Origin: Caldilineaceae bacterium
GTDB lineage: Bacteria; Chloroflexota; Anaerolineae; Caldilineales; Caldilineaceae
Direction: 5' to 3'
DNA length: 64,000 nt
NCBI GenBank assembly: GCA_026708085.1
Contig: JAPOVP010000189.1
Location: forward strand, 13,834 to 77,833
A model generated the notes under the pieces. That model was given only the letters and a program-made list of their open reading frames with translations, did no database searches and was not told the DNA's origin. This document shows positions 31,275-58,961 of the stretch, in pieces. Each line of letters opens with the position of its first letter. The stretch's first letter is position 1. Both the position numbers and the translations under genes were made by a program.

Positions 31275-32928
31275 GCTTCAATGGAGCCCCTGGCCTCCCA
31301 ACCATGGATACGCTGCGAAGCGTTTGAAATCGACCTGGCCTATGACATGCTTCAATGGAGCCACGGCCTCCCAGCCATGGATACACGGGATGTGGTGCAG
31401 CGGTCAGCACACTTGCCTGTGCTTCAATGGAGCCATGGCCTCCCAGCCATGGATACGACTACACCGCGATCAACTCTCATTTCCTGAGCCAGCAGCTTCA
31501 ATGGAGCCATGACCTCCCAGCCATGGATACGTCTCCGTCGTTGCCGTCCTCGTCCTGGTCCATCTTGCTTCAATGGAGCCATGGCCTCCCAGCCATGGAT
31601 ACTTAGAAGAATAACCTCTGAGACGCAGCTACCGATCATGCTTCAATGGAGCCATGGCCTCCCAGCCATGGATACTCGCTGCCGCCGCTGCCCTCATCAG
31701 GCCCGTCCGTCTTGAAGCTTCAATGGAGCCATGGCCTCCCAGCCATGGATACTTGACTATCCACACTGTGAGCAATTGTGCGCAGTGTATCGCTTCAATG
31801 GAGCCATGGCCTCCCAGCCATGGATACGGCGGCCCGCCGCCGTCCGACGACAATCCGGTAGCGGTGCTTCAATGGAGCCATGGCCTCCCAGCCATGGATA
31901 CCGCCGCAGAAGCGTATCGAGCTGAGGGAGCCGCCGACGCTTCAATGGAGCCATGGCCTCCCAGCCATGGATACAAGGACTGGGCAAATCGTCATGTAAG
32001 GGAACGCTGACGCTTCAATGGAGCCATGGCCTCCCAGCCATGGATACGTCAAGGCAACTCAACCCAGCGGTTCGACAATCTCCACGCTTCAATGGAGCCA
32101 TGGCCTCCCAGCCATGGATACCGGCGAAGCTGCCCAAACCGAGCTTCTCCGCCTCCGCGCTTCAATGGAGCCATGGCCTCCCAGCCATGGATACGAACAC
32201 GGAGGATGCCGCATGATCCACTCCCTGACACTCGCTTCAATGGAGCCATGGCCTCCCAGCCATGGATACTGGGCAGCTGTGACGGGACGCCGATACCGTT
32301 GCTGCATGCTTCAATGGAGCCATGGCCTCCCAGCCATGGATACCACGGGCCGGCATGACGGCTTTTTCCATTTCCTGATGCTTCAATGGAGCCATGGCCT
32401 CCCAGCCATGGATACAAGCGCCCTCCGCATTCTGCGCCCGCCACTTCTGCACGCTTCAATGGAGCCATGGCCTCCCAGCCATGGATACCGGGCAGGAGCG
32501 TTTCGAGTTCGGTTAGTTCCTGGTAGCTTCAATGGAGCCATGGCCTCCCAGCCATGGATACCGTGCGCGGTGAAAATGCCGAGCGGCTGGTTCGATCCCG
32601 CTTCAATGGAGCCATGGCCTCCCAGCCATGGATACTCGTTCCTTTGGGCAGCGTGCCCTTATCCTCCTCAAGCGCTTCAATGGAGCCATGGCCTCCCAGC
32701 CATGGATACCCGGCCCCCTCCCATCCCATCGGCTGCCCCGCTTTCGCGCTTCAATGGAGCCATGGCCTCCCAGCCATGGATACTCTGTTGGGGCTGCTAC
32801 CGCGCTAACCTGCGAGCTAAGCTTCAATGGAGCCATGGCCTCCCAGCCATGGATACTTGCGCTGCCGCGCCCACCCGTCTCCGGACTGAAACGCTTCAAT
32901 GGAGCCATGGCCTCCCAGCCATGGATAC
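31275..32928 (-). CRISPR. CRISPR array 1: 23 repeats of 36 nt and 22 spacers (36-41 nt)
   Basis: Repeat on the + strand: GCTTCAATGGAGCCATGGCCTCCCAGCCATGGATAC. In the transcribed (minus) orientation it is GTATCCATGGCTGGGAGGCCATGGCTCCATTGAAGC, a 7-bp stem with an ATTGAAGC 3' end. Degenerate repeats lie at the low-coordinate end (31275, 31349) and perfect ones next to cas2. Confidence 0.97.
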
Positions 32929-33151
32929 GGCGGAATTACAGGGATTATAGCCCAAATTTGCCCCGTCCGTACTGCAATCTCAGGATGCAAAGCCCCTTTC
33001 ACCATCCAATCGCTGCACCTGTCTTGGTATTCCCCTCCTTCCGAGCAAATAACCTGCGAGCGCTTTCCCTTCAAAGCGCGCAGCACCGGACCTCTCGCAT
33101 TCACACGACAGCCGCAAGACTCCCTCCCCGGCGAAGCTTGTAGAAGAGCGC
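32929..33151 (-). promoter_or_regulatory. Leader of array 1 with a candidate -10 box
   Basis: Lies between the cas2 stop and the first (perfect) repeat. A perfect TATAAT on the minus strand (32949-32944) sits 15 nt upstream of the first repeat. I see no good -35 box. Confidence 0.45.
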
Positions 33152-33442
33152 TCAAACGACCAAAGCCTCCCTCTGCTTAGGCTTGACTTGGCGGCCCAAT
33201 GTTCTGACCATGCCGGCGGCCCGCCCCTCGACGGGACCGATGTCGATGATGAGCACACGGTCCTCCTTCACGTCAATGATAGCGCTCAACGCCTCCTCCA
33301 AAAGGACGCGTTCCTTTGCCGAAAGATCGCAGGCGAATACCGAATACTGCAGCGCGTCGCCGAACCCGTTCATCTTCTTGAAAACCCTGCGCAGCCGCCC
33401 GCCGTCGCTCACGTCGTAGGCCACGATGTATCGATTGCGCAT
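33152..33442 (-). CDS. cas2: Cas2
   Basis: 96 aa. MRNRYIVAYDVSDGGRLRRVFKKMNGFGDALQYSVF is the Cas2 ferredoxin-fold N-terminus. Confidence 0.9.
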   Translation of the reverse strand: MRNRYIVAYDVSDGGRLRRVFKKMNGFGDALQYSVFACDLSAKERVLLEEALSAIIDVKEDRVLIIDIGPVEGRAAGMVRTLGRQVKPKQREALVV

Positions 33443-33445
33443 CCG

Positions 33446-35155
33446 TCACCTTGTCGTAAACGCGGGGTATTTCTTCAACTCGCCCTGCAGGTAGCGCCCC
33501 AACAGCCGCGCCTGCACCTCCATCACCCGGCGGTAGCTTATCGAGTACTTGAACAGAGGGTGCGTTATCAACCCGTCCATCCTGCGCTCGAACGCCCCGA
33601 TTACCGCCTTGCGCCCCGCCTGGGTCAGCGACACCGCCCCGCCCCTCTCGATGAAATCCTTCTCCTTCAGCTCCGCGTTGTTGAACAGCGTCAGTGTCGC
33701 CGAGTCCGCGATCAGGGGGCGGTACTCCTCGGCAAGGTCCAGCGCCAGCGCCGGCCGTCCATACTTGGGCTGATGGTAAAACCCCAGGTACGGGTCGAAG
33801 CCAACCGCCATCGCCGATACCATCGCCTGCCGCATCAACATCGAATACACGAAGGAGAGGACCGCATTCACCGGGTCCCTGGGCGGCCTCCGGTTGCGTC
33901 CCCGGAAGTCGAACGCCGGACGCCCCGACTTGAGCATCCCCCCGAAATGGGCGAAGTAGACCCGCGCGGCCGCGCCCTCGATGCCCAGCAGCGTGCCGAA
34001 TGAATCGGCCGCCTCCACCTTGCCCGTCAAACGCTTCATCTCCTCCACCGCCGCGGCCGGTGCCTGCGGATGGTTGCGCCGCAGCATCACCCGGCTGTTG
34101 CGCACCTTGGCCCGCACGATCTCCTTAGCGATCGCCAGCGATGCCGTCGGATCGCCCGCCGTCCGGTACTGGTTCATGCGCAGCTCGACGTTCTTGTGCG
34201 CCATGCCCCAGGTCACCCCCTTCAGCCAGCCCCCGTAGCTGAAATGGCAAATCGGGATGCCCCGTTCCAGGAGTTCGCGCGTCGCCTGTGCCGTCACCTG
34301 CACGTTGCCGAAGAGCGAAAGGCTGGAAACATCCAGCAGCCTCGCTTTGGCCGCGGTCTTGCCCTTCACTCTGACGGACAGGGTTTCGCCCGACTTCCCC
34401 ACAACGCCGCCCTGCGCGACGACGTACATCGGCAGCGCGTCGTCCCGCGCCGGCATCAGCCGCCGCACGTCGTCCGGCCGCACAACGTAGCGGCTGCCCT
34501 TCAGAAAGCTCACCTCGTCCGGAAGGCAGATGCCCACCAGCGAGCAGCGCGGACACTTCGGGCTGTCCTCCAGCGGCGGCGGCATCTCGCCGGCCGCCGC
34601 CATCTCCCGCGCCGCGCCCAGCAGCTCCAGCGTCTGCTCCACCAGTCCGTCGTCGAAGGGCACCGGCACGCGGCGCTTCGAACCGGCGTAGTAGATCACG
34701 CCCTCCCCGCACTCGTAGCCGTTGGCCCGCAACAGCAGCCCCTGCAGGCACAGCTGCACCCGCTCCGGGTCATACACGTGGCCCGGAATGTCGGGCACCT
34801 GCCCGCGCTTGTAGTCGACCGGCGTGGCGCGGTCCCCCTCCGCCTCCACCAGGTCGATGCGCGCGATCGCGCCCAGCCCCTCGTCCCCAAGCGTAACCGA
34901 ACGTGCATGGACCCTCTCTGGCTGCCCGCCGCCCTCTTCCGTCCCACCCCCCTTCCCGTCCCGCGCCGGAAGATCCCCGGAGGGCTGATCGACCCGCCTG
35001 TGCTGGAACCGCCCGTCCAGCGTGTCCGCGCTGTGCGCGAACTCCCCTTGCACCCACTCCATGTAACACAGCCTGGGGCAATAAGTGTACTCGTTCAGCA
35101 TCCGCGCCGGTATCAGGTCCGGCGCGCCGGCGAGATGGGCCAGGTCCGATGTCAT
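33446..35155 (-). CDS. cas1: Cas4-Cas1 fusion protein
   Basis: The N-terminal Cas4 part has YCPRLCYMEW and CPRCSLVGIC (Fe-S cysteines). The C-terminal Cas1 part has NAVLSFVYSML...GFDPYLGFYHQPKYGRPALALDLAEEYRP. The start is chosen at MTSDLAHL (35155). Confidence 0.9.
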   Translation of the reverse strand: MTSDLAHLAGAPDLIPARMLNEYTYCPRLCYMEWVQGEFAHSADTLDGRFQHRRVDQPSGDLPARDGKGGGTEEGGGQPERVHARSVTLGDEGLGAIARIDLVEAEGDRATPVDYKRGQVPDIPGHVYDPERVQLCLQGLLLRANGYECGEGVIYYAGSKRRVPVPFDDGLVEQTLELLGAAREMAAAGEMPPPLEDSPKCPRCSLVGICLPDEVSFLKGSRYVVRPDDVRRLMPARDDALPMYVVAQGGVVGKSGETLSVRVKGKTAAKARLLDVSSLSLFGNVQVTAQATRELLERGIPICHFSYGGWLKGVTWGMAHKNVELRMNQYRTAGDPTASLAIAKEIVRAKVRNSRVMLRRNHPQAPAAAVEEMKRLTGKVEAADSFGTLLGIEGAAARVYFAHFGGMLKSGRPAFDFRGRNRRPPRDPVNAVLSFVYSMLMRQAMVSAMAVGFDPYLGFYHQPKYGRPALALDLAEEYRPLIADSATLTLFNNAELKEKDFIERGGAVSLTQAGRKAVIGAFERRMDGLITHPLFKYSISYRRVMEVQARLLGRYLQGELKKYPAFTTR

Positions 35156-35469
35156 AGCGCCTCCAACCTCACTTTCCCGGAACGAGGATACCCAGCCCAT
35201 AGAGCTAGGCAACGTCGAGAGAAGGAGATCCGCAAAGCTCACTCCCGAACTCTATATGAAAGCTGGAGACCCCGCCAGCGTGCGAACCTCTCTGCCTGTA
35301 CCTGAAAAAGTCGAAGGCTCGTACGCCGTCGGAGCGCCCCTTCTGCATCGACTTGAGGCCTTCTTGATGCGCCGCGTTTCCTACGCATGTTAAGGCAGGA
35401 GCATCCCCATATCGCAGGCGAAGCTGCCGTCGAACCTGATCCCCCGAGCCGCCTACCATCCTCTTCCGA

Positions 35470-36309
35470 GTTTCAATGGATCCGTGGTCTCTCAGCCACG
35501 GATCATCCGGCCTACGACGAGATGGCGGAGTGGGGCTTCAAGCTTCAATGGAGCCATAGCCTCCCAGCCATGGATATTTGGTCAGGCTCTTCTTCTTCGT
35601 CCTCATCCTCGAACATCCTTCAATGGAGCCATGGCCTCCCAGCCATGGATACAAGTGCCACTCGCCCTCGTACAGATGCCGATATTCGTACCTTCAATGG
35701 AGCCATGACCTCCCAGCCATGGATACGGCGTATCTCGATGCTTTCCTTGCGCACCGCGAGGCGCTTCAATGGAGCCATGGCCTCCCAGCCATGGATACAT
35801 GACCCGCGCCGGCGAGATGTTCGTGACCCTGCACCCGCTTCAATGGAGCCATGGCTTCCCAGCCATGGATACGTGGGATTTGCCGCCCGCCCGGCCGCCG
35901 TGCGCGACCTTGCTTCAATGGAGCCATGGCCTCCCAGCCATGGATACTCGCCGAGTTCGTCATCCCGATCCGCCCGCGCATCCTGCTTCAATGGAGCCAT
36001 GGCCTTTCAGCCATGGATACGTGCGTGCGCGGTGGGCAGGAACCAACCGCCAAAAAGGCTTCAATGGAGCCATGGCCTTTCAGCCATGGATACGAGGGTA
36101 CTGGTCATCTGCCCGGCTTCGCTACGCCTGCTTCAATGGAGCCATGGCCTTTCAGCCATGGATACGGCGTGTACAGGAAGATAGCGTCGCCGTTCGTGTC
36201 CCTTTAATGGAGCCATGACCTTTCAGCCATGGATACAAGATCCCACCGCGGCCGCCGACGCCATCGTGACACTGCTTCAATGAAGCCATAGATTCCGCCA
36301 GAACAAATC
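35470..36309 (-). CRISPR. CRISPR array 2: 12 repeats (both terminal ones degenerate) and 11 spacers (35-39 nt)
   Basis: Same repeat family and orientation as array 1. It sits between the cas8-like gene and cas4/cas1. Variant repeats are listed in the findings. Confidence 0.93.
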
Positions 36310-36362: not shown

Positions 36363-37286
36363 CTAGACCGGTTGGGCAGGCAGAAAGTTGCTGTAGTACT
36401 GATTCTGCTGGATGCGTTGACTGCGGAAGACTTCTGCAATCCCTCTCATCCCCAAAGACTCGTAGTCTATCGGTTCACGCGTCAGGTCGGGCAGCGCAAG
36501 TAGAGACCGCACGGTTTCCGGTTCCAACTCAGGCGTCCATATCGGCCACACGAAGTAGATCTCTCGCCGACCAGCTCGTTGAAATCCAGTAGTCACCGCT
36601 TGGCGTCCCACCGGCATAGTCGGGAACCACCGCAACGCCTCTACCGCCAGACAGTCTGCCCCGAGCATCATGCCCGGGCCGTCAGCAAGTTTGGACTTGC
36701 TCGGATCGCGCCAGCGCAGCGCGTATCGTTGGTCTCCTATCGGGTCCCAGCGGAGACTGTAGCCTTCGTCCCGGTAATCCCAAGCTCCAAAAATAGACAG
36801 GTGCAAACGGTCAAGAGTCAGAGCTTCGAGGTTGGCTTTGGCATAATATGGCAATCCCTGCCCCGCGGCATCTCCGCTGCGCACCATGCGAAACTTTGAA
36901 TCCTGAAACTGACCGCTCCTCGTGTCAGGATATAGCTCGGTCCCCATGCCAGCCAGCAGATCAGTATCCCTCCGTCCATCAATCGACGAGGAATCCTGCG
37001 CCTCCTTGAGTGCTTCGCTGAACTTGCCGACGTCATACGGCATCTTGTTATCGACATCAAAGACAGTTACGGGCGCACGCTGCAGCATATCCAGGATTCG
37101 TTCCGAGAACTCTCTTTCGTCACAACCGCATCCCAGAAATAAGGGGCTCCACCCTCGACCTGTCTGTCTCCAACCGAATCGTAACCCCGCGCAAGATTCC
37201 GCCGCCACAACCGCTGCGCCAATAGCCGCCAGAAATCCGAGCGGATTGCTCCCTCCCAGGCCTCGCAACAGGAGGCCGGTCTCCAT
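36363..37286 (-). CDS. Putative type I-G large subunit (Cas8g/Csb3-like)
   Basis: Assigned mainly by position directly after cas3. The N-terminus from the ATG at 37286 is METGLLLRGLGGSNPLGFLAAIGA. The ORF-track extension to 37532 overlaps cas3 and is probably not translated. Confidence 0.5.
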   Translation of the reverse strand: METGLLLRGLGGSNPLGFLAAIGAAVVAAESCAGLRFGWRQTGRGWSPLFLGCGCDEREFSERILDMLQRAPVTVFDVDNKMPYDVGKFSEALKEAQDSSSIDGRRDTDLLAGMGTELYPDTRSGQFQDSKFRMVRSGDAAGQGLPYYAKANLEALTLDRLHLSIFGAWDYRDEGYSLRWDPIGDQRYALRWRDPSKSKLADGPGMMLGADCLAVEALRWFPTMPVGRQAVTTGFQRAGRREIYFVWPIWTPELEPETVRSLLALPDLTREPIDYESLGMRGIAEVFRSQRIQQNQYYSNFLPAQPV

Positions 37287-37297
37287 TTCACCTGTGC

Positions 37298-40200
37298 TCA
37301 CTGCCTTTCCTCCCATTCGCTTCGCCGCCAGTCCGCCAGACGCAGCAGCGCCTCCAGCCATGCCAGACCCCACCATCCGTAACGCCGCACGAGACGCCAA
37401 TAACGCTCTGCAACGCCCGAGTCGAGACGCTCCAGACCCGTGGAACCGGACCATTGCATCCGCGCGCCGTCCATTGCAAACTCGGAATCCACGCTCGCTG
37501 CATCCTGCACCACCGGCGCAAACGGGCGGCAATAGCCGTGATGACTGGCGATCAGGTGGAGCGTCAAGTCACACAGTTCCGGCTTATTGGGCAACAGACT
37601 GGCGGCGCTCTCTGCCAGTCGAACAGACAGCAGCTCGTGGCGGCCGCCCCTTGGATATTCTGCCTTTTTCTGGCCCCTGCCAAACGCTTGCCCTTTCGGC
37701 ATTTGGCCGGACTTTGCCAGATGCGCGCCACCCATCCAGAGGTGGCTGCCTTGCAACAGCGCCTGAAAGCGCGGGTCCGCCTTCCCTACGTCGTGAAGAA
37801 GACCGGCACGCGCCACGGCATCGGCCAGATCGTCCGTCAGCCCGCACCCTTCTGCATAACGCCGCACGAACGATTCCACCCCGCGCAGATGGTCTTCCAA
37901 CCGGATGGGGCGCCCGTCGCTATCGGATATGCTCGATGCGCTGGCGTCATCCTCATCCGAAAATGTATCGGCATCCCCCATGAGCTCGGGTATGCGGCGG
38001 TTTCCGGCAATGACGAGATGGCTGTCACCCACAATTCGATACGCCCGCCGCAGTTTGGCCCCGCTATATTCTGTCCTAAGTTCCCCTGCCGCTTCACCCA
38101 GCCAGCTATCTTCGGGCGCATGCACGATGAGGGTGTCCAGAATCCCTCTGAGCGTGTCAGCAACTTCAGCTTCGTCAGGATCCTGCTCGTGCTTCTGGGT
38201 TATCTCCTTCAGCAGGTCGCAAGTCTTCTCCTTGACGGCGTCTAGCTCCAGAGGCCATGCCTTTACCAGCTTCTTGTGCAGACGCAGCAACGGCCTTGCG
38301 CGCGCCAAACGGTGGGCCTGATCGCCCACATCAAGCATGTCATCCGACCCGCTGGCCTGTGGGGGAAAGTCGCCAATCTGATCGAATGAGCCTGGATGGC
38401 TTGTAGGCACTACAATGACGTCTCCGGGACGAACTTCCCTTGGGTCGGCCGTTATCTCCTTCTTCCCCGTATCTCTTACCCCCCGCCACCTGATTACTTT
38501 GTAGGCCTCATCAAGCGTCCCTTCACCGATCTGCGTATTGTCCCGCTCCCTGCCCTCCACGTCACTGCTGTCGTCATCGGCCTCTTCAGCGCGCAACCAC
38601 CTCCTGAATACGCCAATAGGAACAGGAAGCGTTTCGCTGCTGCTTGGGGGGCAGAGCTTCAAGACCTCAAGCGCGGTCGCCCTGCCATCCGGGTTCGTCA
38701 AGTCAATATCAGCGCGCCAGCAAACCTGTACGTCTGGGGCACCTTCGCGCGGCCCGTGTAGGAAAAGAGCCACGTCAGGGGAAGGGCGAGGTTTCGGCGC
38801 AGTCTGCGCCCAGCAGTCGACATGGGCCGGCAGCATGACCGGAGCGTCCAGGGACGGGGCATTCAGCGTGTCCAGGGATTCAATCGTTGACAGTGTGCGA
38901 TCCAGAGATGCTATCCCGAAATCCACCTCGCCGTTCCCGTCACTGATCTCCTGCAGCCAAGCCCACGTGGCGGTGAGCGCCGTTCCATAGACCGGGTCGC
39001 CCTCGTCCCCCTTCTTGAACTCGGCCTGGTCCTCGCGTACCAGGATGACTGCGCGCGAGTCGATCTCCCTTCCCATACGATTCAACCGTCCGAACCGCTG
39101 GCGCAGAGCGTCGAGACTGGCGCATTCGGTAACCAGGCCATCGAAGTCGAGGTCAGCGCCGACCTCCAGCGTCTGCGTTGCAACGACGATCATCGGCCTC
39201 TCGAGCGCACGCTGCTCAGAATGGTCGGACTGAAGCTTGTTAAGACGCTCTTCGACTACAAAATTCTTGTCGATGGGGCGCATGCGCCCTGTCAGCAGGA
39301 CAACATCAAACTCCTCCATTGCAGTCAGCAACTTGTAAGTTGCCCTGGCGGTCACAACGCGGTTGACGAATACCACTACCGCGCGCAGTTGCTCGCTCAC
39401 GAGCGCCACCGCGGCTTCAGCCAAGGCCTTGGCCAGGACATCCGTCGCACGCCTCCCCTTGGCTCCGCCAACCCTCTTCAAAATTGCTGGCTTACGCGCC
39501 AGCTGACGTATTCCAAGAGGATGGTCGGGGTCAATTCGTTCGTCAGATCTGTCTTCGAACCTGCTGCTCAGTTCCGGCGGCGGGGTCGCCGACATGACAA
39601 CAGGCTGAAAGGCGCGCGCCAGAGGAGCGTCTGCCCACTCTCTGTAGCGGCGGACAGCCTGCAGGGTCTGCAGAAACGGCTGCGCACAGTGCGCCTCATC
39701 CAGGAAGATCAGGCTGTCGTTGGCAACCAGCGCGGCGTAAACGGGCCATACGCCGGAACCGCGGCCGTACCCGCGGAACAAGAGCCGCGACCCCACCTGG
39801 TCCACCGTCGATGCAACGACGGTGGGCTGGAGAGGGTCGCGCGCCCAGGCCTCGGAACGGTACATGCCGCCCCGCAATGCGTAGGCCCGCAGCGGAGTCT
39901 CGCCTTCATACCCCGATGTCGCGCCGAAGGCGATCTGCCGCAAGTTGTCCGCTACTACCTTGAGGACCCCGTCCTCTGCTCTGCAAAGCTTCTCTGCTAC
40001 TTCTCGCGCTCTTTCGTACGCCTGGTCTACGATCACGCGGCGGTCCACGACGAAGAAAATGCGGCGCGGCGCGGTGATGACTTCGCCTCTGGCAATATGC
40101 GAAGCCTGGTTTGCCAGGGCAAACACCGCAATATCCACGCACGCAGTCTTGCCCGAAGCCGTAGGCAACGCGATCGCCTCCGGCCATTCAGCGCCGCCCG

Positions 40201-40312
40201 CGTTCCCGGACACGCTTTCCGCCAGCGCCCGCTGCCAGGCAAACGGCTCCTTGTCCCACAACGCCTGGAAAAACTGAACAAAGTCTATCGAATCGGAGCT
40301 TTTCACGTCCAT
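37298..40312 (-). CDS. cas3: Cas3 helicase with a C-terminal HD nuclease (type I-G arrangement)
   Basis: Walker A LPTASGKTA, DEAH box FLDEAHCAQ, and a C-terminal HD domain (LLHDVGKADPRFQ ... IASHHGYCRP). Start candidates are 40312, 40345 and 40369. Confidence 0.9.
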   Translation of the reverse strand: MDVKSSDSIDFVQFFQALWDKEPFAWQRALAESVSGNAGGAEWPEAIALPTASGKTACVDIAVFALANQASHIARGEVITAPRRIFFVVDRRVIVDQAYERAREVAEKLCRAEDGVLKVVADNLRQIAFGATSGYEGETPLRAYALRGGMYRSEAWARDPLQPTVVASTVDQVGSRLLFRGYGRGSGVWPVYAALVANDSLIFLDEAHCAQPFLQTLQAVRRYREWADAPLARAFQPVVMSATPPPELSSRFEDRSDERIDPDHPLGIRQLARKPAILKRVGGAKGRRATDVLAKALAEAAVALVSEQLRAVVVFVNRVVTARATYKLLTAMEEFDVVLLTGRMRPIDKNFVVEERLNKLQSDHSEQRALERPMIVVATQTLEVGADLDFDGLVTECASLDALRQRFGRLNRMGREIDSRAVILVREDQAEFKKGDEGDPVYGTALTATWAWLQEISDGNGEVDFGIASLDRTLSTIESLDTLNAPSLDAPVMLPAHVDCWAQTAPKPRPSPDVALFLHGPREGAPDVQVCWRADIDLTNPDGRATALEVLKLCPPSSSETLPVPIGVFRRWLRAEEADDDSSDVEGRERDNTQIGEGTLDEAYKVIRWRGVRDTGKKEITADPREVRPGDVIVVPTSHPGSFDQIGDFPPQASGSDDMLDVGDQAHRLARARPLLRLHKKLVKAWPLELDAVKEKTCDLLKEITQKHEQDPDEAEVADTLRGILDTLIVHAPEDSWLGEAAGELRTEYSGAKLRRAYRIVGDSHLVIAGNRRIPELMGDADTFSDEDDASASSISDSDGRPIRLEDHLRGVESFVRRYAEGCGLTDDLADAVARAGLLHDVGKADPRFQALLQGSHLWMGGAHLAKSGQMPKGQAFGRGQKKAEYPRGGRHELLSVRLAESAASLLPNKPELCDLTLHLIASHHGYCRPFAPVVQDAASVDSEFAMDGARMQWSGSTGLERLDSGVAERYWRLVRRYGWWGLAWLEALLRLADWRRSEWEERQ

Positions 40313-40316
40313 CTCC

Positions 40317-41903
40317 TCAACTCTCCATTGGCCGGCACAGCCCATAGCCCCGAAACCGTCCCGCCCCAACAGTGACCGGTCCCCGCACCGGCTTCTCGAA
40401 GACCAGTACGGCGTGGCTGTGGCTCTGGCGTCCGCCGTCGCTCTTGCGAGTCATCTGAGGGAAATCCCTCGCATGTGGCACGCCTTCGACCATCGACACC
40501 GGGTGCAGCAACACCTCGCGCGGGCGCGGCAGACCGATGTGCCCGCAGGCATCCTTCACGCTCTCTGCCGCCTGCTGCCACCTGTCCTTGCCCTTGAAAT
40601 GTCGGTTGAGGACAATCGGAGTGACGCTGGCCCAGACACGCGACGCCCGCGTCCATGTAGCGACGTCAAGATTCTTGGGCGAGCGTTCTCGGCTCTCCAG
40701 TTCGAGCTGGCATTCGAACCACTGTCCGTCAAACAGACGATGCTCGCGCGGCAGTCCCGTATCAACGCTCAGCAAAAACGTTTCCAGACAGCGTCGGGCC
40801 TCTTCCGGGTTCAACGTCTGCGGCAACGCCAGCGCCAACCCCATTACGCGGCCGTCGGCATACCGATCTCCCACAAAGGGAAGCGGCAGCAGTGCCATAT
40901 GCGGTCTGGTCGTCGGTGAACCACTCGCTTTGTGCCCGCTGAACCACTCTGGAGGCGGCTGCTCCGGGCAACAGCCCATCAAGACCCCGCGCAGTGCCTG
41001 TGTAAGTTTCAGCGTCGTCGGCAGCGGAACGCGCCGGCCCCCGATTGCAAGCACAACCATGTTCGGGTCGAAGACCGAGCCAGGAAGGCCGGGAGAGTCG
41101 GGCTTCGTCGGTTTCCCATAGCCCTGCCAGCGTGTCGGCACAGGCCGCAGGCTCACGGGCGTATGCGTACCGAATCGCTCGGCAATAACGCTGTCCAGCC
41201 GCTTCTTTTCTTCTCGCATCCTTCGATCCCGTGTTCCTTTGAGCGCGTCGGAACGCGCCTTCAACTCCTCATGTTCCACGACTTGCGCTCTGTTGTAGGC
41301 CTGAGTGAGATCTGCGAGACGGCCGGACGAGAAAACCCGAAGACGGTGTACGGCGACGCCTTCAGTCGGTTCCCAGGTGGGAACAATGTCGCTATCCTCC
41401 GTTACCCATGCCTGAACGAACGACGCCGAATGCCCCACATAAGTCATCTTGGCGGCCAGTCGCTCCAGGCCGACGCGATGTCTTTCCAGTTCGCCCTCTT
41501 GCCAGACCAGATACACTTCCGGGTCATGGGGAATCGCGATGGGGAAACCTCGCGCCTGGCGGGACCGATGCTCCGGCAGCACACCCAGTCCAGCGTCTCT
41601 TAACTTTCGCAGTTCCCCGCTTTTGGGGATCCTGCGGCCGACCCTACTGTCGTTGACGGGAACATAGCTGACTACCGCTGTTCGAGTTGCGTAGCCCGAC
41701 GCGGCGATGGCGGGGGGAGGAAGCGTTTCCAACCAGCGCAACGCTCTGCCCTCTTCAGCGTCTTCACCCGTCTCGAAAAACGCGGCAGCCAGCGCCATGA
41801 AAATGCGGTCCGGATGGGGAGGCCATTCGGCCTGTTCCTTTCTCGCCCCATCCGCCGCGGCCATCGCCCAACCGTTAAGGTAACGGATTCCAAGCCCGAA
41901 CAT
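40317..41903 (-). CDS. csb2: Csb2 (Cas5-Cas6 fusion of type I-G)
   Basis: MFGLGIRYLNGWAMAAADGARKEQAEWPPHPDRIFMALAAAF is the characteristic Csb2 N-terminus. 528 aa. Confidence 0.8.
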   Translation of the reverse strand: MFGLGIRYLNGWAMAAADGARKEQAEWPPHPDRIFMALAAAFFETGEDAEEGRALRWLETLPPPAIAASGYATRTAVVSYVPVNDSRVGRRIPKSGELRKLRDAGLGVLPEHRSRQARGFPIAIPHDPEVYLVWQEGELERHRVGLERLAAKMTYVGHSASFVQAWVTEDSDIVPTWEPTEGVAVHRLRVFSSGRLADLTQAYNRAQVVEHEELKARSDALKGTRDRRMREEKKRLDSVIAERFGTHTPVSLRPVPTRWQGYGKPTKPDSPGLPGSVFDPNMVVLAIGGRRVPLPTTLKLTQALRGVLMGCCPEQPPPEWFSGHKASGSPTTRPHMALLPLPFVGDRYADGRVMGLALALPQTLNPEEARRCLETFLLSVDTGLPREHRLFDGQWFECQLELESRERSPKNLDVATWTRASRVWASVTPIVLNRHFKGKDRWQQAAESVKDACGHIGLPRPREVLLHPVSMVEGVPHARDFPQMTRKSDGGRQSHSHAVLVFEKPVRGPVTVGAGRFRGYGLCRPMES

Positions 41904-43105
41904 CAGGCCTCCTCCTCGGTCGACGCGGTCGCCAGCTCCTGGCTGCGTCTGACCAGCTCGACCAGCTCCGGCGATGGCGTCAACGCGATCTCACCTTCCC
42001 AGGGCAGTCCCTTCCCTCTTGCCTCCGTGATCGCCTCCCCCAGTATCGCGAGAGCTGTTTCGGAATCGCACTCGAACTGCTTAGGGCTCTCTCCCGGGCG
42101 GTCAAGCAACTCCCACACCGGCGCCTGCAGCGCGAAGAGCTGGCAGCGCGAGCGCAGATCCCCGTCGTTGCGCGCCAGCGCGCCGGCGGCAAGCCCCAAC
42201 GCGGCCAGCGTCGTGCGCGCGGCAACGTCGATGTCCGGCCCTGAATCAACTGCCCCGTCGAGGGGAAAGCGAAGCCGGCGCAAGGTGGACAGCGACAGCA
42301 CGGTGGTCTGCGTGGCCTTCGAAATCGTAAACCCACCACTCTCAATGCCAGGAGTGACGTTTCCATGATTCGCTTCCGACGGCTTCCCGTCCCTCCCAAG
42401 CTTCTTGCTTCCGTGATTCTGACGCAGGGTCCAATGCGGGGCGTCATCACTTTCGGATCCGTTTTCATAAAGCGGCCCTGCCCCCAAACGAATTTGCGCA
42501 GGATCAACCCGGCTGGACGTCCTTGCCCCTTCCACGGCGTCGTACCCGATAATTTCCGACACGATTGCCCGCTGGAACTTGGCTCCCATCCCTCCACGCG
42601 GCCCGGTGGAGTCCCACAAACCAAATAGGAGGGCCGTCGGACAAAGGCCGAAAAGACCAGCAGCATTTCGAATGTCTGCTGTGTCAAGGACAGCGCCCTT
42701 TGCCGACCTGCGAAAAATCATGCCGTCGATAAGGCTGTCACGGAAAAGGGCATCCGCGACCCGGTGTGGTGCTTCCAAACTGGTCACGGCAAACCGCTTG
42801 AGCAACGTATCCTGGTCGAAGCGGGTTACCAGCAACGGAAGCTGCACTCGATTGGCCCTGTGCGCTTCCAACAAGGCCAATTCCATGCGGTTTGCTTGTG
42901 ACTGTACTGAGTCCAGCAGCACGCACTGTCGCTTCTCGCCCGTATCCGGATCAATGCGTTCCTCGGTTGCGTACCTCCCGCCTTCGTAGGTTGGAGGAAA
43001 CACCTTGTCCCCCGGTCCACCGGCAGGCTGATAGTCCGTCACACACCGAAACGCGGCGGCCGTGCCACCGACGGCATCTTGCAAGGCCTGAAAGTCGATT
43101 TTCAC
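41903..43105 (-). CDS. csb1: Csb1 / Cas7 of type I-G
   Basis: QPAGGPGDKVFPPTYEGGRYATEER...VLLDSVQSQANRMELALL is the Csb1 signature. GTG start at 43105 with AAGGAGAT 7 nt upstream. Confidence 0.85.
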   Translation of the reverse strand: MKIDFQALQDAVGGTAAAFRCVTDYQPAGGPGDKVFPPTYEGGRYATEERIDPDTGEKRQCVLLDSVQSQANRMELALLEAHRANRVQLPLLVTRFDQDTLLKRFAVTSLEAPHRVADALFRDSLIDGMIFRRSAKGAVLDTADIRNAAGLFGLCPTALLFGLWDSTGPRGGMGAKFQRAIVSEIIGYDAVEGARTSSRVDPAQIRLGAGPLYENGSESDDAPHWTLRQNHGSKKLGRDGKPSEANHGNVTPGIESGGFTISKATQTTVLSLSTLRRLRFPLDGAVDSGPDIDVAARTTLAALGLAAGALARNDGDLRSRCQLFALQAPVWELLDRPGESPKQFECDSETALAILGEAITEARGKGLPWEGEIALTPSPELVELVRRSQELATASTEEEA

Positions 43106-43607
43106 TGTTCATATCTCCTTTGGATATGTGCTACACTTCGAGCAGCGAATGCAGTACTTATATCGGTCCAAACGCACTGCCGGCCCGGTGTCAGTGCTTC
43201 TTGTATTGCCTCAACCTCCCGAGCCGACGACGCGATCAAAACTGAGTCCTGGTCACAGTGCTTGTTGAGAGCCAGACGTAGAGAGCGCAATGACAAAAGG
43301 GGATTCACAACTGGCATGCTGATTGTCCTTAGGCAAGGGCCAAATCGACGACCGAAAATTGCCGGAATCTAACGGGTTCTGTCGATGTAAGCCTCTATTC
43401 GTGCGACTCTTGGCGTTATTCTCCGCCCTGAAGCCGAATCAACCAGCGCTCTGCGGAACCATGACCGTATTCGATGCGTGTACCTTGCCTGATCCGACTC
43501 GCAAACAGCCAGACAAACCGCTACGGCGAGGTTGATGGTCAACGCCCGCTGTTGAAACGTGCGTATCATGGCGAGTAAAAACTAATCTTATAACACATAT
43601 GAAAAAT

Positions 43608-43636
43608 AGAATAGCACACGGCTTGGGCCTTGTCAA
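43608..43636 (-). promoter_or_regulatory. Strong sigma70-like promoter reading toward the small ORFs and the cas operon
   Basis: On the minus strand: TTGACA (43636-43631), a 17-nt spacer, then TATTCT (43613-43608). It lies in the only AT-rich stretch upstream of csb1. Confidence 0.55.
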
Positions 43637-43685
43637 TACCCAAATCAAGGCAATTTCATTTTTTCTTGAACTTTCTAACTTTCAT

Positions 43686-43791
43686 GCGCCATTGAATATG
43701 CCGATCGGACTCCATTGAAGAATATGAGCTATCAGATTCTGTCGGCAAGCATCCTTCTACTCCGGGCCGCAAGGCCCGGCCCCTTTGAAAG
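43686..43791 (+). ncRNA. Degenerate mini-CRISPR (creA/CreR-like): psiR1, 36-nt psi-spacer, psiR2
   Basis: psiR1 tail at 43710-43721, CTCCATTGAAGA, matches the repeat tail at 11/12. The psi-spacer is 43722-43757. psiR2 at 43758-43791 has a perfect 7-bp stem (CCGGGCC-GCAA-GGCCCGG) at the repeat-stem position, then CCCCTTTGAAAG (8/12 to the repeat tail). Confidence 0.6.
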
Positions 43792-44088
43792 GCCGTAGAT
43801 CATCCGCGTCTCACCGGCTTCCTGCCGTGCGCGGGGCCGAGTGGTGACCGAGATTGGCGCGACGGTGGGATCAGTCGGCTCAGCTGCCGTACCGGGCCGC
43901 CTTCGAATTCAAGCTTGGAACTGGTCGGGGAGTGCCCCCCTGTTAGAAAACGCCCTGTACGCTTCTCATCCTATCAGCGCGCCGTCAGTGCTCATCCGCT
44001 TGGGCAACGCCAACGCCCAGGCCCCACAATGCCGGCCCTCTATGAAAAATTGGAGGCCGCCACCGTGGTCCAAAACGATCCCATTTTC

Positions 44089-44390
44089 AAAAAAAATTCG
44101 TTCAGCGCCGACGCATGACGGCGCTACCACCAATGCCGCAACGCGCATCCATTTTCAAAGGACCACACAAACGCACATCCCCCTACAGCCGCCAACCCAC
44201 ACCAAGCAGCGAAAGAACAGCCGTCACCGAGACGATGCGGCCTGCACCGCGGCACTGAACTGTCACGGCCGGTACGGCTGCCACTCGGAGAGACGCTCCT
44301 GCTGCACTGCCGGTGAATGACGACATATCGGTTCGAGTCAGGAGCACCGATGTAACCCGGTACCCGACCGGCACTGGATATGTGTTCTGA
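44089..44390 (-). repeat. Non-coding paralogous element, copy C1
   Basis: Shares blocks with 49826-50090: AAAAAAAATTC..TCAGCGCCGAC, AATGCCGC, CGGTTCGA, GTACCCGACCGGCA. On the minus strand it ends in a T8 run. Confidence 0.6.
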
Positions 44391-44664
44391 TCTTAACGGT
44401 CCAGCCGGCGGCGACGTGCCTGGTGCCGGCAAGCGCCACACCGCCGCACTTCAGCCTGCTCCCTACTGTCTTCTGGACAGAGCCCGGTCTTGACTCTCTT
44501 GAAGCCGCTCAATTCGTGCCCGCCGCCGGGCGGCGAGAGATTGGCAGCTGACAAGAGATTGCAAAGGGGACGTACCGCCCGCTGATGAGACAGAAGGGTT
44601 GTGAGTCTCAGACCATCGCGCCAGGTTGCGCGTGTGCTCACTGCAAGAGTCGAAGGATAGAGCG

Positions 44665-47291: not shown

Positions 47292-48617
47292 TTACGGCAT
47301 CTCCCAGAGCAGACGCAGCGGCACCGCGTAGAGCCCATTGTCGAAGGGCACGCTCGCCTCGCCGTCGTAGAGGACCACCCCCCCAACGAACCGGCCGCCT
47401 GCGGCGTCCCTCAGTTTCCGCAAAGCTCGGAAATCCGCTGCAGTCACCGTCGCCCCGGCCTTGACCTCCACGCCCGCCAGGGCCTGCGTTCCCCGCTCGA
47501 TAACGATGTCCACCTCGGCCCCGTCCCTGTCGCGAAAGTGAAAAAACGAAGTGGCGTCAGCCCGCCAGCTCGCCTGCCGTCTCAGCTCCTGGTAGACAAA
47601 AGTCTCAAGCAGCTGCCCCATCAGCGTCCGGTTTGCGGCCAGGCCGGCTGCGTCTATCCCCAGCAGGGCGCAGGCCAATCCGGTGTCGCCAAGGTGGAGC
47701 TTCGGCGTCTTGACGAGCCGCTTGAGGCGATTGCTGTGCCAGGGCGGCAGCTGCTCCAGCAGGAATACCCGCTCGAGCAGGGTCACATAGTCCCGGATCG
47801 TTGGCCGGCTGATCTGGAACGGGGCGGCCAGTTCGGAGAGATTGAACAGAGCGGCCGTGCGCGCCGCCGCCAGCGTCAACAACCGCGGCAGCGCATCGAG
47901 CGAACGGATGCGGGCGATTTCAGGCACATCCCGCTGTACCTGGGCCTCGAGATAGTTCCGGTACCAGTTGGCGCGCCTGCGGCCAGCCGGCCGCGCCAGA
48001 GCTGCCGGGTATCCTCCCGACACGATCCGCTCAATGAGTTCTCTTCCCAGACGCTCCGTGCGTCGACTCTCGAAACCTCCACCAAACAGCGCGTTCAGAA
48101 ACCCGGGAGACCGGTCCAGAGAGCCGGCTGCGTTCGCTCCGCCTTCCATCTCCCGCTGCGCCAGCGGGTGCAGCCTGACCGTCTCCATGCGCCCCGCGAG
48201 CGAGTCGGTCATAGCCGGAGTCTGCAGCACGTTGCTCGAACCCGTCAGCAGAAAACGGCCCGGCAAACGTCTGCGGTCCACCTCGATTTTCAAAGCGTCA
48301 AAGAGCGCAGGAACCCGCTGAACTTCATCCAGGATAACCCCTTCGGGCAGGTCGGCGACGAACCCCATCGGGTCGGCCTCGGCCCCCGCGCGCACGACCG
48401 CATCGTCGAAAGTGAAATAGGTGAACTCACTCGGTCTGCCGGATGAAAGGGTCTGCCCGCCGTCCCCCCGGGGCAGCTGCCCCGGCGCGCAGACCATGAG
48501 AGCAAGGGTAGTCTTCCCGCACTGCCTGGGCCCGTGGATCAGAACGACCGGCGAGTCTTCCAGCGCCTCGGTCAACCGCTGTGCAACCAAACGGGGATAA
48601 AGAATACGCTCAGCCAT
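47292..48617 (-). CDS. AAA ATPase with DUF4143 (AAA_14/DUF4143 family)
   Basis: From the ATG at 48617: MAERILYPRLVAQRLTEALEDSPVVLIHGPRQCGKTTL. The C-terminus has the DRDGAEVDIVIE nuclease-like DUF4143 motif. Confidence 0.8.
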   Translation of the reverse strand: MAERILYPRLVAQRLTEALEDSPVVLIHGPRQCGKTTLALMVCAPGQLPRGDGGQTLSSGRPSEFTYFTFDDAVVRAGAEADPMGFVADLPEGVILDEVQRVPALFDALKIEVDRRRLPGRFLLTGSSNVLQTPAMTDSLAGRMETVRLHPLAQREMEGGANAAGSLDRSPGFLNALFGGGFESRRTERLGRELIERIVSGGYPAALARPAGRRRANWYRNYLEAQVQRDVPEIARIRSLDALPRLLTLAAARTAALFNLSELAAPFQISRPTIRDYVTLLERVFLLEQLPPWHSNRLKRLVKTPKLHLGDTGLACALLGIDAAGLAANRTLMGQLLETFVYQELRRQASWRADATSFFHFRDRDGAEVDIVIERGTQALAGVEVKAGATVTAADFRALRKLRDAAGGRFVGGVVLYDGEASVPFDNGLYAVPLRLLWEMP

Positions 48618-48710
48618 CGGCTGATTGTAACCTTTACCTTCGGCTGATTGCAACCTTTGCCCTCGGTTGATTGAAAGGTTTAACCCCCGCTGATTGAAAC
48701 CTTTTCCCTT
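48618..48710 (-). repeat. Four tandem 23-24-bp repeats abutting the ATPase start codon
   Basis: Units (+ strand): CGGCTGATTGTAACCTTTACCTT / CGGCTGATTGCAACCTTTGCCCT / CGGTTGATTGAAAGGTTTAACCCC / CGCTGATTGAAACCTTTTCCCTT. Confidence 0.85.
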
Positions 48711-49825
48711 CGTCACCAGCCCCCGGTTGCCGGAAACTCGCCCGCCATCCTGGAACTCCTCCTACGATATGACCCCGAAAACATGCCGTTGGCAACCTTC
48801 AAGAAATACTTGCATCTCCGCCCAACCCGCGCTAAGCTATGAGCCACCACTGCCAAACCAAAAACTGCCAGCAGAACTCGGAACAGCACGACCAGGAAAG
48901 AGCCTGATCAGAGGAGGGCAACCACAGCCGAGTAACCTGATGGAACTCATGGAACTCGGGATTTCTACCTGGCGGGGCGCACGGTCACAACGCCCATAGA
49001 TCTGTCTGCCGCTTTTGTGAGAATCCATGATTTGAAAAGGGATCCGGCGTAACGCAATTGCAGGGTGAATTGAGACAGCAATCCCCGTTTTGTGCCGAAT
49101 CTATCTTGGCAAAAGCGGTCGTCTGTCGCTGCTGCGGGCGAACCATGGTTGGCGGTTCTGTAGAAGGGCAGACAACTCGAAAGCGCGCAGTGCCCTTTCT
49201 GTTCTATCTGGAATCAGGGTCGCCGATCAGGTGTCAGCATTGCGGACAGAACTTGCCATCATGGGAATAGGTAGGAGGAAGTGCGGAGAGGGTTCCTGCT
49301 CGTTATAGCGTTGGTGCTCGCAACTCTGGCTTGGCTCTCGGTCTACGCTTTCTACTCGGAGAGCGGCGAACTCATCGACCTGTCCGCGTGTCAAGGCGAG
49401 GTCAACTGTACGGGTATCAAACTGGCAATCTGGTTTTTAGTGCCCTTGTGGCTCCTTCTTTTCGGAAGTTGGCTCTTCGTCCTTTTGCGTTTCAAGAAGT
49501 GAACTACATATGGCCGGCTAGGAATACGGCAAACAGGACCAGAACGGTGAACGCGGACAGCGCGAGGAGGCGTGATCTGGGATTCATGTTGTGTTCTCGT
49601 AGTGACGCAGAATGAGCCGAGGAGCGACTATCGCACGGCCCGATTGTGCCATCTGGGAATCGGATGGCGCGGTCTGAAGTAGCGTATTACAGCTCAATCT
49701 CCCCGTCAAACACGAAAACCTGGTATCCCACCCGTTTCTTGCCCCAAACCTTGCTGCCCATTTCCTCTAATTCAGTTGGACTGCTCCCGCCGCCGCAAAT
49801 CATCACTCTCCGAACTCGGGCTTCC

Positions 49826-57945: not shown

Positions 57946-58961
57946 GCGCACACGATCAGTTCACCATCCAACTCGGCGGCGGCCTCACCTGGCTCGCCAA
58001 ACGCCACGACCTCAGCTGCACCGAAGTGCAGGTCGTCAACACGCTCATCCTACTGGACGGACCCGACGGCTGCCACCCCAGCTTCGCCACCATCGCCGAA
58101 GTCTCCGGACGGCCCTACCTGATGGTCCGCAAGGCAATCAAGTCGCTCAAGGAAAAACGTCTGATCGACACCGAGAACAGGCCCTACCGTGACGCCCGCG
58201 GCCGCGAGCTCAAAAGCAAAAGCTATACCTACGTCTTCGCCGAAGAGATCGAGCAGGCCCTCGAATTCGCCGCCGAAACGATCGATCTCAGACGCCGCAA
58301 AACACAGATGCCACTGCTGCCCGCCAATCCAGATCGCGCGCCAGAGGATCCCTATCTGGATCCAGATCGCGCGCCAGGAGATCCCTATCTGGATCCAGAT
58401 CGCGCGCCAGGAGATCCCTATCTGGATCAACCCGGGCAGCCCGCCGATCCAAATCGCGCGCCAGAGGATCCCTATCTGGATCCAGATCGCGCGCCAGGAG
58501 ATCCCTATCTGGACCAGATCGCGCGCCAGGGGATCACCAATAGGGGTAGGTTGGTAGGTAGGAAGGATCTATATCTACAAAAAATAAAGGATCCTACCTA
58601 CCTGCCTACCTACGCGACGCCGGATGAAGACGACCAACGCCTCTCGCTCACCATGATGTCCCATCCCGACATTAGCCTACCTGAAGATTTCAAGGAAGCC
58701 GTCGCGCGGAAACTCAGGCCGCAGGTGGTATTCCACGTCTGCGCCTGCTACTGCTTCGACCTCGCACGCGGCGCTGTTCAAAACACCGGTGTGCTCATGT
58801 ACCGCCTGGCCAACCTGGACCAGTCCCCGCCGCGTCGCCTGAGCGACGTCCAGGGCGAGACCATCGAGTTTTACCAACAGTTCTATATCTATGCGGAGCA
58901 GATCATGCGCGACATCAAGCAGAAGGAATACGACCAGGAGATCGCAGAGGACACGCCATGA
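57942..58961 (+). CDS. Winged-helix (Rep/DnaD-like) DNA-binding protein containing in-frame tandem repeats
   Basis: MSAHDQF...EVQVVNTLILLDGPDGCHPSFATIAEVSGRPYLMVRKAIKSLKEKRLI is a wHTH. The central part has DPDRAPGDPYL repeats. Confidence 0.6.
   Translation: MSAHDQFTIQLGGGLTWLAKRHDLSCTEVQVVNTLILLDGPDGCHPSFATIAEVSGRPYLMVRKAIKSLKEKRLIDTENRPYRDARGRELKSKSYTYVFAEEIEQALEFAAETIDLRRRKTQMPLLPANPDRAPEDPYLDPDRAPGDPYLDPDRAPGDPYLDQPGQPADPNRAPEDPYLDPDRAPGDPYLDQIARQGITNRGRLVGRKDLYLQKIKDPTYLPTYATPDEDDQRLSLTMMSHPDISLPEDFKEAVARKLRPQVVFHVCACYCFDLARGAVQNTGVLMYRLANLDQSPPRRLSDVQGETIEFYQQFYIYAEQIMRDIKQKEYDQEIAEDTP
58328..58538 (+). repeat. 33-bp tandem repeats (5 full copies plus 1 partial) inside the Rep-like gene
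   Basis: TCCAGATCGCGCGCCAG(A/G)GGATCCCTATCTGGA occurs at 58328, 58361, 58394, 58448 and 58481, with a partial copy at 58514. Confidence 0.9.

Follow-up and report, generated by a model that had tools for sequence, protein, structure and literature searches.

A probable regulatory mini-array beside a type I-G cas promoter

A 64,000-nucleotide (nt) stretch of a Caldilineaceae genome (contig JAPOVP010000189.1, positions 13,834 to 77,833; hereafter, the window is this whole stretch) carries a complete type I-G CRISPR-Cas system on its minus strand, as identified with NCBIfam, Pfam, and PADLOC. Upstream of its effector operon csb1-csb2-cas3g-cas8g lies a short element at 43710–43791, in which two repeat-like parts, psiR1 and psiR2, enclose a pseudo-spacer (psiS). 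This mini-array very probably acts as a CreR-type regulator, that is, a CRISPR RNA (crRNA)-like guide through which the type I-G system represses its own cas operon. The element is located outside the two CRISPR arrays and 121 nt from a partial match of psiS at the cas promoter. Both arrays lie on the minus strand, so the mini-array is inverted relative to them, as a preliminary description of the window had stated. The CreR-like repression proposed there is supported by the comparison of related loci described below, in which psiS and its promoter target covary.

Architecture of the mini-array

The genuine repeat of the locus, GTATCCATGGCTGGGAGGCCATGGCTCCATTGAAGC, folds into an 8-bp stem, one of whose pairs is U–G, with a GGGA loop; 4 nt precede the stem and a 12-nt tail follows it. 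psiR1 (CTCCATTGAAGA, 43710–43721, plus strand) matches this tail (CTCCATTGAAGC) at 11 of 12 positions and consists of nothing but the post-hairpin tail (CTCC|ATTGAAGA). Within the 64 kb, it is the only match to the 12-nt tail with at most one mismatch, besides the decayed ends of the two arrays. Its predicted 8-nt 5′ handle at 43714–43721 reads ATTGAAGA and agrees with ATTGAAGC of the repeat at seven of eight positions, as expected of a CreR handle. The 36-nt psiS (43722–43757, plus strand) follows, and the part that matches the target occupies its positions 1–17 (43722–43738). psiR2 (43758–43791, plus strand) reads TACT-CCGGGCC-GCAA-GGCCCGG-CCCCTTTGAAAG and comprises a 4-nt flank, a 7-bp stem (43762–43768 with 43773–43779), a GCAA loop, and a tail (CCCC|TTTGAAAG) that matches the repeat tail at 8 of 12 positions. 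Its layout of 4 nt, 7-bp stem, GNRA loop, and 12-nt tail follows the register of the repeat and corresponds to the 3′ hairpin of CreR; the hairpin has a folding energy of −16.2 kcal/mol (z = −2.8). The positions of psiR1 and psiR2, the 36-nt gap between them, and both tail matches had been described correctly from the window sequence. The psiR2 stem had also been equated with that of the repeat. The 7-bp stem and its register were confirmed, but the genuine stem is 1 bp longer and the loops differ, although GGGA and GCAA are both GNRA tetraloops.

In type I-G, the cut that Csb2 makes in the 36-nt repeat lies 4 nt 3′ of the 7-bp stem and yields an 8-nt 5′ handle, and Csb2 remains on the 3′ hairpin after cutting (Shangguan et al., PMC9638904). 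The geometry of psiR1 and psiR2 conforms exactly to this rule, which predicts a cut in psiR2 after 43783 and a mature crRNA-like RNA of approximately 70 nt (43714–43783, plus strand), consisting of the 8-nt handle, the 36-nt psiS, and a 26-nt 3′ hairpin handle.

The target site at the cas promoter

The target is a protospacer-like site (ATATGTGTTATAAGATT, 43584–43600, minus strand) on the coding strand of the cas transcript. psiS matches it at 14 of 17 positions, with mismatches at positions 6, 8, and 12, and at 14 of the 15 positions that are constrained across related loci (see below). The protospacer-adjacent motif (PAM), TTC, is located directly 5′ of the target (43601–43603, minus strand). 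The match, its mismatches, and the TTC were all reported accurately in the preliminary description, and the T-rich 5′ PAM that it named for type I-G agrees with the published motif, TTN (Shangguan et al., PMC9638904). The target begins 7 nt past the −10 element of the cas operon promoter (43608–43636, minus strand), which is composed of a −35 element TTGACA (43636–43631), a 17-nt spacer, and a TG-extended −10 element TATTCT (43613–43608). This TTGACA-17-TATTCT promoter had been recognized earlier without mention of the TG extension; it is the sole sigma-70-like site found in 42900–44000 and lies upstream of csb1-csb2-cas3g-cas8g. It falls within an AT-rich trough at 43550–43750, with a GC content of 36–39% compared with approximately 58% around it. 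As in CreR, psiS thus matches the effector promoter only in part, at its PAM-proximal end and next to the cognate PAM.

Nowhere else in the whole window, on either strand, does psiS have a partial match. The 33 genuine spacers produce eight comparable partial matches in the window, none of which has a TTN motif. psiS and the cas mRNA share the same sense, so the template DNA strand is the only possible pairing partner of the guide. Antisense control of this mRNA by RNA–RNA pairing, which was considered as a candidate mechanism, is thereby excluded.

Distribution among related loci

Related loci (denoted by L and a number) were sampled as 80 species-representative genome loci, retrieved via Csb1 relatives of graded identity, together with the contigs of the closest proteins. 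The module is present in 22 loci, 21 of which have sites equivalent to the target in the window. Alignment of the regions upstream of csb1 revealed that the mini-array, promoter, and target are kept in L083 and L084 (94% Csb1 identity) and in L085 (93%). BLAST and motif scans added L089, L090, L001, L002, L023, L038, L027, L034, L043, and L061. A tail-only scan, in which a CATTGAAG-like tail was located and the next 17 nt had to match at 13 or more of 17 positions on the csb1-sense strand, added L006, L013, L018, L031, L045, L049, and L063, and a metagenome scan with the psiR2 motif added an independent variant (L094/95/99). In the nearest strain, L101 (Csb1 100% and DNA 97.6% identical), psiS matches its target at 16 of 17 positions, with only position 12 differing. 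Sponge-symbiont samples such as SRR10996927 also contain contigs nearly identical to this locus. A target-first search for further loci returned only a palindromic-repeat artefact in L056. The metagenome match L100 (3980–4006) has a coding-like context and no target, and is probably an unrelated hairpin. A search of IMG/VR for viral copies of the psiR2 motif, which could represent RNA anti-CRISPRs, gave no matches.

In the 22 loci, psiR1-psiS-psiR2 lies antisense to csb1, 166–1006 nt upstream of it. The hosts belong to Caldilineaceae, Dehalococcoidia, Latescibacterota, Binatia, Bryobacterales, and Nitrospira, with one alphaproteobacterium, and represent at least six phyla. The psiR1 tail YYCATTGAAGN is kept in all 22 loci. 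The psiR2 architecture is likewise present in every locus with lineage-specific stems; it was read from per-sequence folds, as MAFFT mis-registers the divergent stems and the RNAalifold consensus is uninformative. The genuine repeats of the related loci share a flank, a GC-rich stem, a loop, and a CYYCATTGAAGC tail, and their stems are also lineage-specific. In L063, psiR2 resembles the local repeat, while in L090 it differs from the local repeat, as it does in the window lineage.

Covariation and the pairing register

The pseudo-spacers differ wholly between lineages (for example, ATATGAG..., ATTAGCA..., GTTGAGA..., GCTGAGA..., GTGGCCC..., and GGAAGCG...), with identities near chance, and each of them matches its own promoter region at 13–16 of 17 positions. 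psiS and target agree in 16–22 of the 22 loci at each of positions 1–5, 7–11, and 13–17, and at chance level at position 6 (7/22) and position 12 (5/22). Positions 6 and 12 account for 32 of the 50 mismatches within positions 1–17 (binomial P = 4e-18). Since the sites were selected by total identity only, this pattern is not a product of the selection. The type I-G Cas7 flips out every sixth guide base, which is then unable to pair (PMC9638904). The 6/12 periodicity, which the preliminary description had noticed in the window alone, is real.

Covariation was counted in 20 loci by writing psiS and the complement of the target strand as a hairpin. At the 15 constrained pairs, 94.3% of the cells are paired, compared with 31–42% in slid registers. 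All 15 constrained pairs have changed on both sides in a compensatory manner, and double changes occur in 105 cells, as against 28.2 ± 5.0 in shuffles (0/500). The preliminary description had set covariation in homologous loci beforehand as a test able to refute its reading; psiS and target, whose covariation is one of the marks of CreR, covary across the 22 loci compared.

With all 24 positions scored, pairing ends after position 17 in every lineage, in line with the earlier remark that the match collapses beyond position 18. Agreement at positions 18–24 is found in only 1–6 of the 22 loci each. In the 20 loci, these positions (43739–43745 in the window) give 14 matches out of 140, compared with 28.1 expected from composition (0/5000 shuffles), and the deficit persists when each psiS family is represented once (9/105 against 21.9 expected). 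This finding suggests, from base composition and matches, that selection acts against extension of the R-loop past position 17.

The PAM played no part in site selection, and TTN is found in 21 of the 22 loci (TTT in seven, TTA in seven, TTC in six, and TTG in one), the remaining locus having CTA. Among the first 20 loci, 19 have a target that starts 3–19 nt past the −10 element of a TTGACA-17-TAnnnT promoter reading into csb1, and hence at the transcription start or directly downstream of it. When the same pipeline was run on null sequences, loci combining TTN with 13 or more of 17 matching positions numbered 20 for the real pseudo-spacers, none for reversed or complemented ones, and one in total for 20 shuffles. 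At the level of sequence, these comparisons establish the anatomy of the mini-array, the promoter, and the selection that keeps a Cascade-type pairing between them.

Proposed mechanism

In the mechanism that we propose, the plus strand around 43700–43800 would be transcribed, Csb2 would bind the psiR2 hairpin and cut 4 nt past it, and the 5′ end would be trimmed to the 8-nt handle. The RNA of approximately 70 nt would be loaded into Cas7g/Csb2/Cas8g(/Cas3g) as a normal crRNA. The loaded complex would recognize the TTC at 43603–43601, and base pairs would form between psiS positions 1–5, 7–11, and 13–17 and the template strand where transcription from the cas promoter begins. Pairing would span three Cas7 segments and then stop, leaving an incomplete R-loop. 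Since such an R-loop cannot extend, Cas3 would not be licensed, and the DNA would be bound but uncut. The bound complex would block RNA polymerase, and the effector would in this manner repress its own operon. The repression would be eased when Cascade is scarce, inhibited by anti-CRISPRs, or titrated by abundant crRNAs. We infer that the guide RNA is transcribed and processed and that the promoter DNA escapes cleavage; the direction of the effect, repression, is suggested by the location of the target, which coincides with the transcription start, and by analogy with experimental CreR systems.

A broader rule may also be formulated for guides of csb1-first type I-G systems, whereby selection in at least six phyla would maintain pairing over exactly three Cas7 segments (positions 1–17), leave positions 6 and 12 free, and actively avoid pairing at positions 18–24. 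We advance this rule tentatively, as a serious possibility that falls somewhat short of being probable.

Several observations weigh against the interpretation of the mini-array as a cas autoregulator. In the window, psiS has a C–A mismatch at constrained position 8, which is not present in the nearest strain. No hairpin that would account for 5′ maturation abuts the psiR1 handle in the window or its two closest relatives; in roughly half of the remaining loci, a 6–8-bp stem with a 20–30-nt loop abuts psiR1. The psiR2 stem (CCGGGCC) is unlike that of the local repeat (CCATGGC), so recognition by the local Csb2 is an assumption. A scan of 42900–44000 predicted no plus-strand sigma-70-like promoter for the mini-array, and among the relatives, a promoter on this strand is not positionally conserved and is clear only in L013. 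The target geometry also varies: the L027 site falls between the −35 and −10 elements and has the CTA PAM, and in L094, the target ends just upstream of the −35 element. L091 has a good mini-array and no target within the 283 nt that are present (1–283, up to the contig end). Finally, no more than roughly one in five of the 94 related loci has the module, which is dispensable. L081 and L082 (96% Csb1 identity) have lost the mini-array and promoter together, and L086–L088 (92% Csb1 identity, same repeat) have an unrelated upstream region with no mini-array.

Other features of the mini-array family and its upstream regions were observed. In L013, a perfect TTGACA-17-TATAAT on the mini-array strand lies approximately 72–100 nt upstream of csb1, within the cas leader; it fires back through the target and the cas promoter, and the two transcription units would overlap head-on. 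The deletion in L081/L082 (relative to 44003–43507 of the window) also takes the start of the leader, and the upstream region of L086–L088 has its own TTGACA/TATAAT. The non-pairing 3′ half of psiS is self-complementary in L027, L034, L043, L006, L013, and L045, as in TACGCGA-TTCATT-TCGCGTA of L043. For the window lineage, a pairing is instead possible between psiS positions 18–26 and the 10 nt directly 5′ of the psiR1 tail. At the final position of the handle (43721 in the window), only 3 of 20 mini-arrays have the canonical C (A in five, G in eight, and T in four), while the genuine repeats of the family always end in C. psiR2 was also considered as an intrinsic terminator and rejected, as neither strand carries a T-run and the terminator scan was empty.

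Alternative explanations

One alternative is an addiction module of the CreTA type, in which the guide would mainly repress a small toxic RNA or peptide, analogous to CreT, encoded in the leader, so that loss of Cascade would kill the cell. The window indeed has a long 5′ leader between the target and csb1 (43106–43583, minus strand), and the leader of this lineage is about 275–370 nt longer than that of L001, L002, L013, L034, and L038 or of L089/L090. It contains two small open reading frames (ORFs), ORF66 (43569–43369) and ORF71 (43317–43102), and the preliminary description had likewise placed two small ORFs ahead of csb1 in the transcript. Moreover, in Haloarcula, CreA and CreR are interchangeable, one guide repressing both creT and cas8. 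However, the start codon or frame of ORF66 and ORF71 is lost in the close relatives L083, L085, and L081. The ORFs match no family in NCBIfam or Pfam, and Rfam scans (the window at the gathering threshold and 43000–44400 by E-value) yielded nothing relevant. The ORFs were accordingly rejected as genes, whether Cas11-like or toxin, and the leader is more likely, judging from these sequences, to be a 495-nt 5′ untranslated region. In addition, the leader measures 100–130 nt in L001, L002, L013, L034, and L038, as against 495 nt in the window. Most lineages have the promoter at this distance from csb1, with no room for a toxin, which identifies regulation of Cas as the shared function. Hence, we consider an addiction module improbable; the window lineage may nonetheless have an unrecognized RNA toxin.

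It is equally hard to favor the view that the guide is loaded into Cascade for some other main purpose, as a decoy or assembly chaperone, to tune a divergent promoter of the mini-array, or to control leader transcription rather than Cas levels. The variable target position, mostly at +1 to +12, with L027 having it inside the promoter and L094 upstream of the −35 element, and the retention of a mini-array beside no detectable target in the 283 nt of L091 would fit such a role. Against it, the target is tied in every lineage to a promoter reading into csb1, and experimental CreR systems of this layout repress cas promoters in types I-B, I-E, I-F1, and V-A.

An inert relic, namely, an unread and inverted fragment of a decayed array that resembles the promoter by chance or through a past duplication, is highly improbable: the reduction of psiR1 to 12 nt with no hairpin in the window, the lack of a predicted promoter on the mini-array strand, and the absence of the module from some close relatives would suit it, but the compensatory changes at every constrained position in 22 loci that are not recent copies of one sequence, the concentration of mismatches at positions 6 and 12, the nearly invariant TTN, and the nearly empty control searches contradict it, and neither duplication nor gene conversion would yield the 5+1 pattern or an end of the match that is always at position 17.

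Relationship to known systems

The autoregulatory interpretation places the mini-array among systems that have already been described. CreR has been demonstrated experimentally in type I-B (Haloarcula hispanica CreA acting on P_cas8), type I-E (Salmonella enterica), and type V-A (Moraxella bovoculi) (Liu et al., 10.1101/2023.03.10.532045), and a supplementary figure of that preprint presents predicted elements for types I-D, I-C, I-E, I-F, and I-U. As in CreR, psiR1-psiS-psiR2 stands beside the effector operon, psiR1 keeps the 8-nt handle and psiR2 the 3′ hairpin handle, psiS pairs with the cas promoter only in its PAM-proximal part and beside the cognate PAM, the targeted promoter is strong, and no toxin is evident. 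Every defining feature of CreR that can be read from sequence is present in the element. Unlike the experimental CreR systems, the type I-G repeat is cut 4 nt past its stem, no Cas5 sits on the handle, and the effector has Cas3 as an integral subunit (PMC9638904). The CreR of S. enterica pairs over 15 consecutive nt, in contrast to the fixed 17 nt in three Cas7 segments with positions 6 and 12 free that are read here from the alignments.

The mini-arrays surveyed by Shmakov et al. (PMC10120712) are likewise standalone repeat pairs in cas intergenic regions, with spacers partly complementary to the promoters of cas8 or effector genes, and are conserved among related loci with a sporadic distribution. 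One of them, from a Pseudomonas aeruginosa type I-F1 system, was validated. That survey found mini-arrays in 4% of 235 type I-G loci and described no type I-G case; in the csb1-first type I-G clade sampled here, the proportion is approximately 20%. The target here precedes cas7g (csb1) because cas8g is the last gene of this operon variant. The preliminary description had known of no type I-G example. With the type I-U elements that the CreR preprint predicts in its supplementary figure and the 4% of type I-G loci, the claim of novelty for the subtype was overstated. CreR and mini-array regulators are thus already on record, including type I-U/I-G predictions, and what is new here is an unusually well-supported type I-G case. 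A later preprint on viral mimics lists types V-A, I-F, I-E, I-C, and I-B, and type I-G is absent from it.

CreTA of type I-B haloarchaea (PMC9458426) has the same guide architecture, with a psiR1 more decayed than psiR2, and a partial match that permits binding without cleavage, as is proposed here. Unlike the present case, the defining partner of CreA is a creT toxin under the targeted promoter; here, there is no conserved toxin candidate, as the 495-nt leader holds no conserved ORF and no known RNA family, and most relatives, with leaders of 100–130 nt, have no room for one. As summarized in PMC10120712, tracr-L of the type II-A system of Streptococcus pyogenes has an 11-bp partial match to its own cas9 promoter and mediates autorepression. 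It resembles the proposed mini-array mechanism in that a natural guide partly matching its own cas promoter makes the nuclease act as a repressor. According to the same summary, it differs in its single-protein effector, which belongs to the other class, in its long tracrRNA guide, and in having no mini-array.

Implications

Type I-G is, to our knowledge, the least studied type I subtype, and its effector is unusual in that no Cas5 occupies the handle and Cas3 is built into the complex. A natural guide that would have to bind its own chromosome uncut offers a test object for distinguishing the pairing needed to bind from that needed to license Cas3. The 22 natural variants amount to a mutational scan of type I-G target binding, with 15 paired bases in a 5+1 register, a stop at 17 nt, and none in the next segment. 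If the guide rule outlined above is true, nature has mapped the R-loop length at which a Cas3-carrying effector still binds without cutting, and the mini-array would be an ancestral part of the cassette, carried along with it when it is transferred horizontally between uncultured bacteria, sponge-associated ones among them. The added value over earlier reports lies both in the natural mutational scan and in the finding that the module accompanies this type I-G cassette across many phyla, which would extend RNA-guided self-regulation of cas operons to type I-G systems across many uncultured phyla. In practical terms, the mini-array may throttle type I-G systems that are transferred to a new host for genome engineering, and its removal or mutation of the TTC should raise Cas expression.

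The type I-G locus and its surroundings

The regulated effector operon spans 36363–43105 on the minus strand, with csb1 first and the cas8g-like gene last, as assigned with NCBIfam, Pfam, and PADLOC. It comprises csb1/cas7g (43105–41903; NCBIfam), csb2, a Cas5–Cas6 fusion (41903–40317; NCBIfam, 1.6e-89), cas3g (40369–37298; NCBIfam, 7e-220), and the cas8g-like gene (37301–36363), all on the minus strand. The preliminary description had named the last gene cas8. PADLOC supports this with its Cas8g model (E = 3.7e-72), but NCBIfam assigns the product to a 'Cas3-extension family'. The protein has 312 amino acids (aa), under half the usual length of Csx17/Cas8g, and a sequence search of the PDB found no match for it. 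The rest of the locus (31275–36309, minus strand) consists of array 2 with 12 repeats (36309–35470), a cas4g/cas1g fusion (35242–33446; NCBIfam, 7e-234), cas2 (33442–33152; NCBIfam), and array 1 with 23 repeats (32928–31275), all on the same strand. The gene set is thus that of type I-G, with Cas7g (Csb1), Csb2, Cas3g, Cas8g, a Cas4–Cas1 fusion, and Cas2. The repeat is also typical of this subtype: it is 36 nt long, has a 7–8-bp stem and a tail ending in ATTGAAGC, and would give an 8-nt handle. It occurs at least 31 times in the arrays of the window, and its variants there have GGGA and GAAA loops, both of the GNRA class.

The first unit of array 2 (36309–36201, minus strand) begins with a 'repeat' that retains only its 3′ 18 nt (TCTATGGCTTCATTGAAGC). 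This partial repeat and the first spacer (AGTGTCACGATGGCGTCGGCGGCCGCGGTGGGATCTT) are kept in L085 (8047–8160; 35/37), while all later spacers differ. The unit may be either a fossil frozen in place or an additional crRNA-like guide; its reading as a second regulator was rejected, as it has no partial target within the window. In L083, a solitary repeat-like unit at 8090–8150 directly follows a TTGACA upstream of cas4/cas1.

The CRISPR locus is hosted by a defence island. A gene at 27872–30370 (minus strand) encodes 832 aa and matches the Orf5/HEC-06/SspE-like models of PADLOC (E = 1.5e-174), and another at 47292–48716 (minus strand), encoding 474 aa, matches the candidate system PDC-S01 (E = 2.6e-157). 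At 48617–48709, directly next to the start of the PDC-S01 gene, a 23-nt unit (TCGGCTGATTGAAACCTTTACCC) is repeated in tandem in four imperfect copies. The unit includes ATTGAAAC, a typical end motif of type I repeats, and the copies are not separated by spacers. Farther along the window, a block of 33-nt tandem repeats (ATCCAGATCGCGCGCCAGGAGATCCCTATCTGG) at 58319–58535 has internally palindromic unit ends and shows a higher-order periodicity of 66 and 120 nt.

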